Assembly (NCBI GenBank): GCA_905178155.1
Contig: CAJINV010000003.1
Location: 618,720 to 682,719 of the forward strand
From: Amoebophrya sp. A120
Lineage: Eukaryota; Protista; Dinoflagellata
DNA: 64,000 nt
Direction of reading: 5' to 3'
Positions 1 to 49,800 of this stretch are shown in pieces. The notes below the pieces were generated by a model, which was given only the letters and a program-made list of their open reading frames with translations, was not told the DNA's origin and ran no database searches. A program made the translations under genes and the position numbers. Within the stretch, counting starts at the first letter, position 1, and the number at the start of each line of letters is the position of its first letter.

Positions 1-3000
1 AGAGCTTTGACGGAGGTGCGGCCCTTAAGTCGTTCTCGTCGCACTCGGGGACCGCTGGAGGTGCAGGCAACAGCAGTTTGATCACGACATCGACAACTTC
101 CGCCGGCGGTTGCAGTAGTTCATCTGAGACGTCCAGTAAAAGTGCCTGGCTTTTTGTCGACGCTCGCGAAGTGATCACGGTCGATGATAGCGACCACGTG
201 ATGTGGCCAGAGAGTGAACTGAAGCTTAGGAACATGTTGGATCGACACAGAATAAAGAACCACCGAGAAAGTAGATCTGGTAATCCAGCAGCGACTCTGC
301 ATCCACCAAACATCGTGGTAACCGGTTTTATCGCTTCTTACGACACGGGGGGTGCGACCACTTTGGGGCGCGACGGCTCGGACTACTCGGCCTCGATTTT
401 TGCGCGGCTGCTGCAGGCGAACTCGGTGTGCATCTGGACGGATGTTTATGAGAGTGCACAACTCTCCCTCCCCCTCATTTGTCATGCAAAATACCCAATC
501 CACTTCCCTTTGCCTCTTGTCACTGTGTGCATGACAAGTTCTGGTCGTAGCCCAAATAGCACTACACTCCACCAGTGCAAATTTGTCATGCAAAACCGGC
601 ATTCTTGCTGATGCTTGTATTGCCGTTCATGCGTGTAAAAATGAGGGGGAGGGGGAGCTGTGCACTGTCATAATGTTTCCGGCGTTTTCAGCGCGGACCC
701 GCGCCGCGTCCCCGACGCGTACGTGCTGCCGGACGTCAGCTACCACGAGGCAACGGAATTGGCCTACTTCGGGGCCAAGGTGATCCATCCGAAAACCATG
801 CGACCCGCGCAGGAGTCCGGGATTCCGATCTTCTTGAAGAACACCTTCCGACCCAGGGATGACGGTACCCGCATCTTCCAGACCTCGGCGAAAACTCTCG
901 CAAGACCGGTGTGTGGGTAAGCTCCTGCAGATCAAGATTTTTAGTACAACTTGGTTGCGTGGTTTATAATTCTGGTAGTTTCGTACTCATATATCTACTT
1001 TTGATTCACAATCACTATCACATTCCAAAGCTTGAACTACACGTATAAACAGGTTCAACGTCGCAGACGGAATTTCGCTTCTGAACGTGGAGTGTGCAGG
1101 TATGATAGAGGTGCCCGATATTTTTGCACGCTTGTTCACACGTCTCACCGCCGATAGCGTCGCTATTCAACTCATCAGCCAGGCGGCGACGCAGCAGAGT
1201 GTGTGCTTCGGCGTAAAGTCGGTAGATAGCGCTCAAGCAGTGAAGAGTGTCCAGGCGTGTTTCGCGGAAGAGCTGCGCCGCGGGGATCTGCAGAGCATCC
1301 AGGTACAACTATGTGCATGTGCTTGTTCATGCAACAGAGCATGTCCTTTTTATCTCTTGTTCGCCTAAAATGATCAAAATGTGGACGCCCACTGCGACAT
1401 ACTGCGCGAAGATTTTTAAATTGCTTGAAAATCTAACCACATCATGATACACACGAAATTACGACAACCAGGTGACAGAGCCTTGCTCTGTGGTGGCTGC
1501 CGTAGGAGATGGCATGCGGATGCGGCGCGGCATCGCCGGTAAGTTTTTTCACGCTCTGGGCAAGTCGTCCGTCAACGTGCTGGCGATTGCTCAAGGGAGC
1601 AGCGAGCGAAACATTTCCGCGGTCGTTCCAAGTGAGCACGCTGCGCGTGCCCTGCGTGCGGTCCATTCCGAGTTTTTGACCAAAATGAACATTGGCGTCA
1701 TTGTTCTCGAGGCCTCCACCCTGACGTCATCTACTTCGGGCGGAACGTCTTCATCGAATAACATTTCGACCACCTCGTCCACAAGTTCGTCGGTCAGCAT
1801 GGTCAAGAAGTTGGAGGCGGCCCTGGGGCCGAACGCGCAAGAAAACCTTCTCGGTGCGGCGGGACTGCAGCACGCGGAGAGCAATTCAATGCTCTGCGAG
1901 TTCCGCGTTCTTGGGGCCTTGCGGTATTTAACTCCGCCCACCGGCGGCAGTGAACCGGATCTCGAAGCTTTGCAGCGAGAGGACCATAACAAGGGCCTGG
2001 TCACCTGGGCGGCATCGTCGGAGTATGCGGAGTTGCAACAGGTTACGCTGCAGAACAGTGCCAATTTGACAGCTACTAGTGCTCACCGAGATCAACACCA
2101 GACATCAAAGACGCCGGTGAACAACAATCGCGGTTCATCTCCTGGCGCGACCGGAAACAACAGCCAGCACCGCAATCTCGACCCTGAAATTTTGAAAAAT
2201 GCGTTTGACATGAACGAGCAGCTCGCGGACCTAGCCGACCGCATTTCCATGTTCGCGCACCAGGTGATCGTGTATGCAATGCAAAAGCAACGTACTAGTA
2301 TAAATGGCATTACAAATTAGCCCAGCATATATAAATTAAATTTGTAATGCTGATTTACCTTGAGAAAGAGATTTGTCATGCACAAATGCAATTGCTAAGA
2401 GTACGATACTTTTGCACAGGATATCGTGGTCGACACGACGATTGCGAACGACTTCACAGCCACGCTGCACCCGCAGTTGCTCCGCCACAATTTTCACGTC
2501 GTCTCGATGAACGCAAGGAGTTTGGGTGGCGCTCCCACTTTGTACCGGGAAATTCTGCACGCCAACACCCGGTTCCTGGACGAGGGCGCCGCGAAGACCA
2601 CGTCGCACCTCCGCCGGAAGCTCTCCGCCGCGGCGCTGCGCAAGGAGAAACTGCACCAGCTGGAGCAAAGCGGAAGTTTGGAGGAGCAGACGAAAGTGAA
2701 TTCCTACAAAAACTTATTGAGAGGAAAAATCCCCCCTCCCCATATTGAAAAGGCAAGTTTAGAAAAATTTGCGTTGCGGATTTGAGGTCACAAATCACAT
2801 CTGTCTTGCAAGAAGACAAGGGCAGAAGCTTCCGCCCCATTATGGAAGCGATTTCTCATGCTGTTGGGCCTAAAGGGGAATCGTTTGCCATGCTGAACAG
2901 CTAGACGCATGCGCCTCTACCTAGCCTGGGGATCTGGCCGCAATGCCTCTCTGCAATACAAAGCTGATTTGTGGCCCCAAATCAGCATCACAAATTTCCG

Positions 3001-46800: not shown

Positions 46801-49800
46801 TCTGCGGGATTATTTCCCCCTGGAGGATTTGCGTTTGAAAGCCCTAGCCACCGTGCCTATGGAGGAATATCTCCTCCGCGGCGACGATATCACGCTGAAA
46901 CGCGGGATGTTTCCCGTGGGTTCGAGGTACTTTGTTACGAAACCGGACGAGGAGTATTTGCGCGCCAGACACGCGGTTTTGAAGTACCGGGACGAGGAAA
47001 AGCAGAAGCGCACGTCCGCCAGGAAGACGCTCCGGAAGTTCTGCTGCTTTTGTTGCCCGACACTGCGTATGACTTGCAAAACAAGTATCGTAGTACTCGT
47101 ACGAGATTCTTGCAGTCTGGCATGAGAGATCCGGTTTTTTTTATCTGAATCTGCATAACAAGTTTTCTGAGAAGTCATGCGATTTGTACTAGTGCGATTA
47201 GGATACTTTGCAATGCATAGTGCGAAAAGCCATGCACATGACGGACGACAATCCGTACCGTGTGCTTAACAGCGACGGCTGCATCTGCGACGTGGCGGGC
47301 AAACTGGAGATTTTCGGCGACATTGACGATCAAAAGGAGCACATCCTGGCGGAAGCGGAGGAGCTGCGAAAGATCCAGGAAGAAATGGACAGGGAGAACA
47401 GTGATCCCTTTGGGATTTCTGATGACTCGTTGTCCCCGAACAAGAGAAATTCATCCAACAAGCGCATCACCACCAGTTTCCAGAAGAAGCGGGGGAGTAA
47501 AAGTGACCGGATCGCGAAAAGGTACGACTACGAGAAGATGTTTCAGAAGTTGTCCGTCGAGGGCATGCCTAGGCCCAAGCTGCCGAACACGCTGGAGAAG
47601 TACCTGGCGCTGCGGTCGGAGCACGCGTACTTTGGGCAAAAGCTCGGCATCTACTGCGTGTTTGTGCGGCACTTCGCGAGCGCGCTGCGGACGCCCGCGG
47701 AGTTCGGGCTACTCGTCACGCTGTTTCAGGCGATCATTTCCTACCTGGACCTGGACACGACGGACCCGACACAGAGCGGTCTGAAGTGGACCGCCAGCCA
47801 CGGCGTCCCGCTTTTGAACGCTGCGTTTTTGGCGTGGTGGGGCCCGTCCTACATTGCCAGCTGGGAGCGCGTGCAGAAAAGGAAAATGCTGCAGCTTTTT
47901 GGGGTGGTTCCGGGGAAGAACTACAAGCACGCCAGCAAACACCAACCACGGAAACGCTTCCACGGGCTGAAGCAGAAATCCGCAATCACCGGCGAGTACG
48001 AGGTGGTCTTTCCGGTTCGCGAGGCGCGCGCGCGCGCGATGTATTCGAACCTGTGCTCCATGCTGTTCTGCACGCTGGTGTTGTGCATCGTGGTCGGCGT
48101 TTCTGGTATTCAGTTTGTCATCTACGAGCACACCATGATCTCGTTCAGTGACAGTCTCTCGTACAACTACTCGCTGGAGCTGATCGGCGTGATGAATGCG
48201 GTCGTGGTCTTGATCTTCAACGCCATCTATTCTTACGTCGGGCTGTGGCTCACGCACTACGAGAACCACGCGACCTACGAAGGTTTTTTGGAGTCCTTTG
48301 CCATCAAAAGCTGTGTGTTTCAGTTTTTAAACAGTTACTCCGCGCTGTTTTACCAGGCGTTCGCGCAGAAATTTTTGCTGCGGCGGATTGCGAAGGGCCT
48401 CGGGAACGACAAGAGCGATGAATGGTACGACATGCAGTACGACGCCATCTGCCCGAAGGAGTCGATTCTCTTCGGGAGCACCTGCGAGATGGGGACGACA
48501 AACCGCACCCTGGTATCATTAGTTCTGGTTTTCATGGCGCGCAACGTCACGGAGCTGGGGCTGCCGATTTTGGCGCATTGGTGGGCGGAGTGGAAGCGGA
48601 AGACCAACCTGCGCGCGATGGACGCGCAGCGCTGGGCGTTTACAAAACAGGGCGAAAAAAGCATGCTCGGCCGGGCCTTGCTCCGAATATCCACCACCGT
48701 AGCTTTGCCAGGCCAAGGCGGAGGCATCACCACCGCGGGAGCAGGCGATACAGCTGCCACCTCAAGCGTAAAGATGGAGCGCCCCGCGGCCGATGGTAAA
48801 AGAAATGTCGACGACGCTACAACTGGAGTGGTCCAGGCGAGCAAAACCCCGGTAGCTGGACCTCCTGCGGCTACAGTTCAGATAGACGCTTCTGGTAAAA
48901 TTGCGCAACAAGAGCACCGCCAATCTAGTACCCTGGAGAGGAGCAGCACGATGACGTCGAAGCCGCCCTCCTCCTCCGCAGGGCCTGTCTTCGCTAATGC
49001 GGTTTTCAAGGCGGGACTCGAACAAGATCGATCCTCGAGCACGTTGAACACCGTAGTACAGGCGGAAAATGAAATCCAGTTAGACGACATTACGTTCAAC
49101 ACTGCACCTACGAGCAGGGAAGATGCATACGCAGCCAATGCGAATGCCCGCACTACACTCCAGCTCGCTTCCTCGCACAAGCTCCCGAAGCCCAACGAGC
49201 GCGGAGGGGGAGGCAGCCACCCGTCGAAGCCGCGGGCTAGAGGTGCACCTGTTCTTGCCGTGTTCGATGCTCCTGGTGACATTACTTCCCAGCAGATCGA
49301 GGGGTCGCATAATGCTGCGGACGAGCAGGATAACGACCGTAGCGGTCCAGTTGGAGGCGGGACAACAGCGAAGAAGATGTCCCTTGAGGAGGCATTTGGA
49401 AACGCAACGTCAACAGTACTAGCTGCCGATCCGAATAAACGCGACGACGCCCCCCGGCTGACTCCGCTGGAAGAGCTTGTGCAAAAGTACGACCGCGAGA
49501 ATGCCGCCCTACAGGCTATCTACGTGGGGGAGGAACCGGAATTGCCGGACTACTTTTACGACGACACTGCGGAGTACGACGCGAAAGCCGTCCGGGCAGC
49601 GCGCCACGCGGGCTCGTTCACCGAGAAGAGCGGCGGCGCCGACTTGCCCATCGACCGCAGCTCCTCGAATGCCTCGTCGAAAGAGTCCGTGCGGCCACCG
49701 AAGAAGCGCGACTTCGAGGAAGACGAAGACGGCCCCAGCGGTTTACGCCGAGAAACGTCCGGCATCGTCGTGCCTGCTCCACCGACGAATATGGTTGGTC

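Follow-up and report, generated by a model that had tools for sequence, protein, structure and literature searches.

The 64,000 nucleotides of the Amoebophrya sp. A120 genome analysed here (contig CAJINV010000003.1; the window) carry plus-strand genes whose coding exons are interrupted by short inverted-repeat elements of the kind termed introners. At the left end lies the 3' part of an aspartokinase-homoserine dehydrogenase (AK-HSDH) gene (3..6167), with seven elements and two GT-AG introns (917-1052 and 1303-1471). There follow a gene without a Pfam family (10693..15473; 1257 codons, four elements), a gene for a Methyltransf_24 protein (16054..18176; 460 codons, three elements and a GT-AG intron at 16858-17010) and an RCC1-repeat protein gene with weak BTB and BACK hits (30440..38086), which reaches 2349 codons once three elements are removed. 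A preliminary description of this DNA had listed 23 elements that start with TAT and mostly end with ATA, each with terminal inverted repeats (TIRs) and a 5-bp target site duplication (TSD), between positions 447 and 47219, and all of them are present. In RNA-like contigs such elements are removed, and removed without GT-AG borders.

Introners of this type are known from the same strain. Farhat et al. 2021 reported RNA-seq-supported non-canonical introns in A120, with inverted repeats starting TAT and direct repeats of 3-5 nt, counted 29,850 repeated introner copies and described the splicing mechanism as unknown (PMC7789003). According to Gozashti et al. 2025, the A120 families are mostly TIR DNA elements of unknown superfamily, family 38 being Ginger-like with a 5-bp TSD and TA/TA termini (PMC12130899), and elements of such type are stated to be confined to part of the genus (PMC12005148). 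Because the window proteins match deposited A120 proteins exactly, the window elements are the introners of Farhat et al., and the preliminary description was right that these are established in Amoebophrya, in this very strain (PMC7789003). The two sets share the TAT inverted repeat, the hairpin, the non-canonical borders and the division into many families; the published elements are about 240 nt long with direct repeats of 3-5 nt (5 bp in the legend of an example figure), those of the window have 5-bp TSDs, and there is no difference in kind (PMC7789003, PMC12130899). The system is thus real and already published, and its appearance in the window is a rediscovery. For the cut register, the orientation independence, the shared internal motif and the 8-bp case described below, no statement was found in the literature excerpts consulted, though they may be contained in papers such as Roy et al. 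2023 or in Farhat et al., Figs S19-S25.

Results

Anatomy and placement of the elements

Scanning all 64 kb for TAT..ATA ends with a TIR of at least 13/20 and a 5-bp flank match of at least 4/5 recovered 18 elements; in 30 block shuffles the same criteria gave 0.23 on average. Family TIRs or inspection by eye added five TAT elements in which the 3' end is damaged or the TIR has an indel: those starting at 15218, 29211, 31722 and 41424 end in AAA, ATT, AGA and ACC, respectively, and that at 47068 carries the indel (elements are named here by their first base). The total is 23, with outermost bases 447 and 47219. All 23 have an intact 5' TAT and 19 an intact 3' ATA; the TSD is perfect in 14 and has a single mismatch in nine. 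Grouping by blastn yields 11 groups, four of them multi-copy in the window, and three families have copies both ways round within plus-strand genes. Including a twenty-fourth element of another type, 22/24 are predicted to fold better than shuffled sequences (z below -2; 15 shuffles each), and their ends are predicted to pair with a mean probability of 0.65-1.0. The depth of DNA contigs piles up on the elements alone, with loose ends at the element termini, which is not to be taken as a copy number.

The AK-HSDH gene contains six TAT elements, all on the plus strand: 447..672 (family A, TSD ATGTT) in the aspartokinase domain, 2273..2423 (family B, TCGTG), 2715..3036 (single copy in the window, AAACT), 3687..3997 (family D, AGTTC), 4106..4256 (family B, GGTCC/TGTCC) and 4325..4594 (family F, GGGAA/GGGCA). 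Two more plus-strand elements lie at 9160..9382 (family A, TTGGA) and 9430..9741 (family D reversed, TGCCG/CGCCG). The gene without a Pfam family holds 13457..13723 (family F, GCTGG), 13771..14032 (family F, CGTGT/AGTGT), 14822..15128 (family D, CACTG) and 15218..15368 (family B, GAGCA), and the methyltransferase gene holds 17132..17393 (family F reversed, GGCCA), 17459..17612 (family B, GTTTC) and 17980..18135 (family B reversed, CGGTT/CAGTT), again on the plus strand. The remaining plus-strand copies are 27353..27565 (CGACT/AGACT) in a PhyH-like gene with weak hits on both exons, 29211..29419 (ACCGG/ACAGG), the three elements of the RCC1-repeat gene, namely 31722..31871 (family B reversed, GACGG), 35694..35844 (GCTCG, junction LA|RDSAYF) and 37691..37971 (CTGCA, junction RC|ILF), then 41424..41576 (family B, GACAC/AACAC) and 47068..47219 (CTGCG/GTGCG) in an anoctamin gene. 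Only 21885..22135 (AATTC) lies outside any rebuilt frame. The count of 22/23 in rebuilt reading frames is one above the 21 of the preliminary description; the additional one, 29211, sits in a frame of 59 codons with no Pfam hit, so that its in-frame placement is doubtful.

The host genes are intact once the elements are removed

Scripted removal of each element together with 5 nt reproduces three deposited proteins at 13/13 TAT elements: the methyltransferase P0001 at 460/460 residues (three elements), P0137 from the gene without a Pfam family at 559/559 residues (four elements), and the AK-HSDH protein P0017 over 1287 residues with 0 mismatches (six TAT elements and the element of the other type). 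P0001 and P0137, which their sources name as Amoebophrya sp. A120, equal the window translations at 100%. Conversely, retention of any single in-frame element (23: 22 TAT elements and the one of the other type) leads to a stop within 1-95 codons. Orthologues from A25 and AT5 align without gaps across all three methyltransferase junctions, and the WTDV|SG junction of element 447 is gap-free in A25 and in more distant homologues; the other junctions lie in variable regions.

An open frame fixes the removed length modulo 3 only, L+2, L+5 and L+8 being mostly all open, and the exact length was therefore taken from deposited models, orthologues and RNA contigs. With that restriction on the frame itself, the earlier proposal that removal of an element plus one TSD copy restores frame and motif is supported by the three deposited models and by the junction peptides WTDV-SG, LAR-DSAYF, GD-CVLYD and RC-ILF, which are present as described. 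The domain labels attached to these peptides fare unequally: aspartokinase is solid, and for PhyH, BTB and BACK only portions of exons are hit, weakly (E 0.013-0.1) and in every case short of the Pfam cut-off. That the genes are intact, as had been claimed, is supported by the exact deposited models and the orthologue alignments, and their expression by RNA-like contigs.

The deposited models are fragmentary: P0137 begins 698 codons into the open frame of 10693-15473, and P0138, from the gene at 30440-38086, starts inside element 35694. The AT5 matches of the genes at 3-6167 and 16054-18176, g2287 and g2292, are closely numbered, a hint of kept gene order.

The elements are absent from RNA-like contigs and retained in DNA

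Four sequencing runs were compared with window positions 1-18600; the figures for run X1 refer to the 7 records listed of 727, those for run X5 to 8 listed contigs, and those for joints to 15 listed of 1424. X1 contig edges at 1468 and 16855 coincide exactly with the left-aligned joints of two GT-AG introns, and X1 has no depth at 7441-8680. Because it skips GT-AG introns exactly and lacks depth there, X1 behaves as spliced RNA. At the elements, six of the seven X1 edges agree with removal of the element plus 5 nt: 2266 (element 2273), 4599 (4325), 9154 and 9743 (9160 and 9430), 13451 (13457) and 14816 (14822). One contig, which joins 8721-9154 to 9743-10269 through the predicted 43 nt exactly, bridges both the 9160 and the 9430 elements. 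Removal without GT-AG, which the preliminary description had placed at the RNA or DNA level, is supported by these edges and by the deposited models.

Use of nearby GT-AG sites would give other edges than those observed in X1 at two elements. Element 2273 has a same-length in-frame CAG|GT..CAG pair (2264-2419) that predicts 2260/2269, and the observed edge is 2266; at 13457 an in-frame GT-AG pair predicts 13454, and the observed edge is 13451.

Contigs of the DNA-like run X5, at a depth of 39.9-50.8 against about 44-67 in unique bins, cross 12 element edges, and one of them spans both GT-AG introns. No precise-excision joint occurs among the DNA joints listed. Since DNA contigs retain the elements at full depth, excision takes place at the RNA level and not at the bulk DNA level, and DNA-level excision does not hold up as the main route.

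In the raw RNA run X9, about 500 reads match 9685-9733, the end of a family D element, and then continue into foreign sequence, with no window exon covered. Reads of X10, likewise a raw RNA run, fall on no exon either, so that neither run bears on the junctions. Because the reads run on in this way, abundant RNA in the X9 sample keeps such a family D element.

Splice signals and cut register

When the junction is slid across the TSD, GT-AG borders become available at 1/23 elements (29211, readable as an intron at 29210-29423) and GC-AG borders at 1/23 (17132), so that the U2-type combination of a GT or GC donor with an AG acceptor is found in only 2/23. The preliminary description had recognised the GC-AG option at 17132 correctly, and its statement that no coding element permits GT-AG fails at 29211. 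It had not mentioned that four elements (13457, 31722, 35694 and 47068) are flanked as G|TAT..ATA|G, which provides an in-frame GT-AG intron 3 nt shorter. At 29210-29423 and 47067-47220 the differing base in the right TSD copy makes an AG (CAG at 29211); these AG-creating changes are possible steps from a hairpin intron to a canonical one.

Both element orientations are removed, in RNA or in deposited models, which argues that the removal signal is symmetric or structural. Where the cut falls can be expressed as k, the TSD base after which it occurs. At 4325 the two copies differ (GGGAA/GGGCA), and the RNA carries the left one as far as position 4, leaving only k=4 or 5. The sole GT-AG case, 29211, is at k=4. 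At k=4 the intron bases +2 to +4 are TAT in 23/23 and +5 is G in 15/23; the first and last intron bases form mixed pairs, and a pairing rule of G with G and A with C was discarded (four of five A-starts end in C, G-starts are mixed, and the cases are too few). Mismatches between TSD copies number six at position 1, one each at positions 2, 3 and 4, and none at position 5.

A second type of element with an 8-bp duplication

A terminus-free scan revealed the twenty-fourth element, at 3122..3651 on the plus strand of the AK-HSDH gene, which is absent from the preliminary list. It has TTA..TAA ends and a perfect 8-bp TSD, AGACGAAA. The deposited P0017 drops 535 nt here, the element plus 5 and not plus 8, leaving one extra Lys; the permitted intron starts are 3121-3123. 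Read as 3121-3655, this is an A..C case with AT..AC ends, in the same register as k=4. Since 4325, the 3122 model and 29211 all fit it, one rule is suggested: the 5' cut would lie at the start of the hairpin or one base ahead of it, and the 3' cut 4-5 nt beyond its end.

At 22461-23422 lies a relative whose flanks repeat at 7/8 bases. Together with 55146-56265, where an 8-bp duplication is not evident, these form a second, TTACAGCTTGGAC-ended family. A metagenome scan with the TTA-family end returned two loci, which were set aside: both lie in GC-rich coding DNA that is unrelated, lack a partner repeat and match by chance. The AK-HSDH gene contains a 36-codon tandem duplication at 2672-4045, whose copies hold elements at different sites (2715 and 3687), the TTA element lying in the second copy; because the sites differ between copies, the insertions likely followed the duplication.

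Mobility and a shared internal motif

With a length of 150-322 nt, TIRs, TSDs and no coding capacity, the TAT elements have the anatomy of MITEs (miniature inverted-repeat transposable elements). No transposase was found in any element, the longest stop-free stretches being 29-90 codons in the TAT elements, with an overall maximum of 95 codons. A shared motif, GCATNACAA, ranks first in an unbiased gapped 9-mer count, with presence in 10/11 families (controls 4-6, 30 draws). All 50 of its 50 hits in the window fall inside TAT elements (about 1.8 expected outside), a count that is partly circular since the motif was first noticed by eye. It is absent from the TTA element and from 21885-22135, so that the one TAT element lying outside a reading frame is likewise the one that lacks the motif. 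A role of GCATNACAA as branch point was rejected, its strand and its distance from the 3' end varying between families, and on the same grounds a transposase binding site appears likelier.

Members of the Ginger superfamily have TGT..ACA termini and an integrase-like transposase; the window elements run TAT..ATA without an open reading frame (ORF) and are not classed as Ginger. Family 38 of A120, listed as Ginger, resembles them in its TA termini and 5-bp TSD and is a candidate transposase source, but it is about 810 bp long with integrase-like ORFs (PMC12130899).

Other features of the window

In the intergenic stretch 7056-8518 a palindromic unit of 129 nt is arrayed five times, and a 252-nt duplication is also present; over most of this stretch depth from the RNA run is absent. 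A long near-perfect palindrome occupies 56562-56748, with further distant inverted repeats across 54776-57376, possibly nested larger elements. Short tandem repeats with units of 14-15 nt and 5 nt extend from 63588 to the window end at 64000.

Discussion

We consider it probable, with good though not full confidence, that the coding exons of A120 harbour non-coding inverted-repeat elements with 5-bp TSDs which are absent from spliced transcripts, which likely spread as non-autonomous DNA transposons, and which are likely cut from pre-mRNA in a constant register that the hairpin determines. The mobiliser would be an integrase-like transposase, for instance that of A120 family 38, that may bind the shared internal motif. 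Once transcribed, the element ends would form the predicted hairpin, and one cut would fall at the 5' repeat or a single base ahead of it, the other 4-5 nt beyond the 3' repeat. Given such cut positions, the upstream TSD copy would be kept and a 5-bp TSD removed without a scar.

The catalyst is the least certain part of this scheme. One candidate is a U2-type spliceosome working independently of U1, to which N-UAU(G) would serve as a relaxed donor, with the hairpin replacing the search for branch point and AG; within the hairpin-register scheme we would give this about an even chance. The donor of yeast introns is GUAUGU, and the k=4 start N-TAT(G) resembles a +4U donor whose first base is free. 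U1 and snRNP27 are described as undetected in A120 (PMC7789003), SNRNP27K loss is reported to accompany +4U donors in yeasts (PMC10581693), and in tunicates the major spliceosome can be retuned and handles non-GT-AG transposon introns (PMC13326754). These introns, from Fritillaria, are likewise TIR/TSD transposon-derived and outside the GT-AG rule; they differ in preferring AG-AC/AG-AT borders, with U1 kept and a divergent U2AF shown, whereas A120 has no preferred dinucleotides and U1 undetected (PMC13326754, PMC11282704). Micromonas/Aureococcus-type introners are alike as MITE-like, TIR- and TSD-bearing agents of mass intron gain, but bring a single canonical splice site with them and recruit the second from the TSD (PMC11282704), whereas here 22/23 lack GT-AG on sliding. 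A far-reaching version, in which A120 splices any hairpin by ruler, irrespective of sequence or orientation, with cuts one base ahead of the 5' repeat and four bases beyond the 3' repeat, is doubtful; under it, TSDs of 5 bp (or 2, 8 or 11) would be tolerated in coding exons, an 8-bp TSD would cost one extra codon, and N-UAUG would be a relaxed spliceosomal donor from which single substitutions lead to GT-AG introns.

Several observations count against the hairpin-set register. The X1 edge at 14035 is one base off the predicted 14034, and a clipped end or a GC-AG variant is possible, although P0137 fits precise removal of this element (13771); the 13451 edge is also compatible with a GC-AG pair, and single X1 edges are compatible with 7-16 of 269 in-frame cut pairs. 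The RNA evidence comes from one run whose RNA status is guessed, in the form of assembled cDNA contigs, and the deposited models may share transcripts with that run, being of the same project. P0138, starting as it does inside 35694, gives no deposit support for splicing there. The ruler itself draws on three single cases, namely a TSD mismatch, a GT-AG element and a deposited model that lies within a tandem duplication, and at 3122 an aligner might favour AT..AC ends, the intron there being an annotation. TSD mismatches are rarer at positions 2-5 (3/92) than at position 1 (6/23; Fisher p 0.002), a skew that a pure ruler does not predict unless the differences arise at insertion. As to the spliceosome, the elements show neither a branch point nor a pyrimidine tract, their last base is not fixed, an acceptor signal is lacking, and good GT-AG pairs nearby go unused. 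TATG occurs at the 3' end almost as often (11/23) as at the 5' end (15/23), so that the likeness to a donor may reflect no more than a transposon end, and no orientation bias was built on these counts.

The alternative that survives best is a dedicated, non-spliceosomal nuclease-ligase that reads the hairpin at the RNA level, as proposed for euglenid nonconventional introns; we rate it somewhat below a changed spliceosome and, on its own terms, below an even chance. It needs no GT, AG, tract or branch point, and it accommodates both the removal of either orientation and the neglect of good GT-AG pairs beside the hairpin. Farhat et al. also expected a distinct mechanism (PMC7789003). In Euglena introns the spacers that separate the cuts from a paired motif are fixed (PMC12501133), and the excised introns are reported to be circular (PMC11282704). 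They are comparable to the window elements in lacking GT-AG, in their paired ends, in a MITE-like origin and in a fixed-spacer cut; they belong to an unrelated lineage, and show N3-CDG..CHG-N5-6 with a purine at the exon start, against TAT..ATA with spacers of 0-1 and 4-5 nt here (PMC12501133, PMC11282704). That signature is not found in the window elements, for which the table of terminal bases shows TAT(G/C) ends. Set against a nuclease-ligase are the lack of any such enzyme known in A120, the donor-like N-TATG at k=4, the register shared by the GT-AG case (29211) and the AT..AC case (3121-3655), and the tunicate precedent of a changed major spliceosome acting on non-GT-AG transposon introns (PMC13326754).

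Guidance of the joint by the direct repeat, the TSD-based mechanism of the preliminary description, appears unlikely, though not negligible. It requires the last four TSD bases to match on both sides, and the rarity of mismatches at positions 2-5, with none at position 5, is what it predicts; two of the three exceptions are synonymous, and the third is the element readable as GT-AG. Yet 4325 is removed despite a mismatch at position 4, and the element with the 8-bp TSD is annotated as losing itself plus 5 nt, a joint without a repeat. The skew suggests either a role of the repeat or a purge, on the exon side, of errors made next to the ends at insertion, which gives the same pattern; 23 elements do not separate the two.

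Precise excision from DNA, or skipping of the elements by the polymerase before or during transcription, is very improbable. A precise loss bounded by direct repeats would suit it, and alveolate relatives excise DNA; contigs drop rare variants, the joints seen are a small listed part, and X5 may be the window's own source, so that excision confined to a particular stage may occur. Against these points stand 12 element edges that DNA contigs cross, inward or outward, with a depth near that of unique sequence, and the want of a precise-excision joint among those listed. Least credible of all are reverse-transcriptase template switches across the hairpin and direct repeats on mRNA unspliced there, which are a known source of false non-canonical junctions (PMC4176328) and would suit the facts that all RNA data here are cDNA and that the X9 reads join an element end to foreign flank, so that some RNA keeps such elements, but under which all 23 in-frame elements would leave their genes truncated, including a biosynthetic enzyme with seven elements and exons conserved with orthologues, and the whole 8-bp repeat at 3122 should have been used; the long contigs hold the skipped form.

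The window touches an open question in the biology of A120, namely by what means introns that lack GT-AG are taken out in their tens of thousands when no U1 has been detected. Mismatched TSD copies mark the cut site, other TSD lengths separate a ruler from repeat guidance, and G-TAT..ATA-G insertions pit the canonical route against the hairpin route. All three handles, on cut site, TSD length and GT-AG competition, can be scored genome-wide from existing data.

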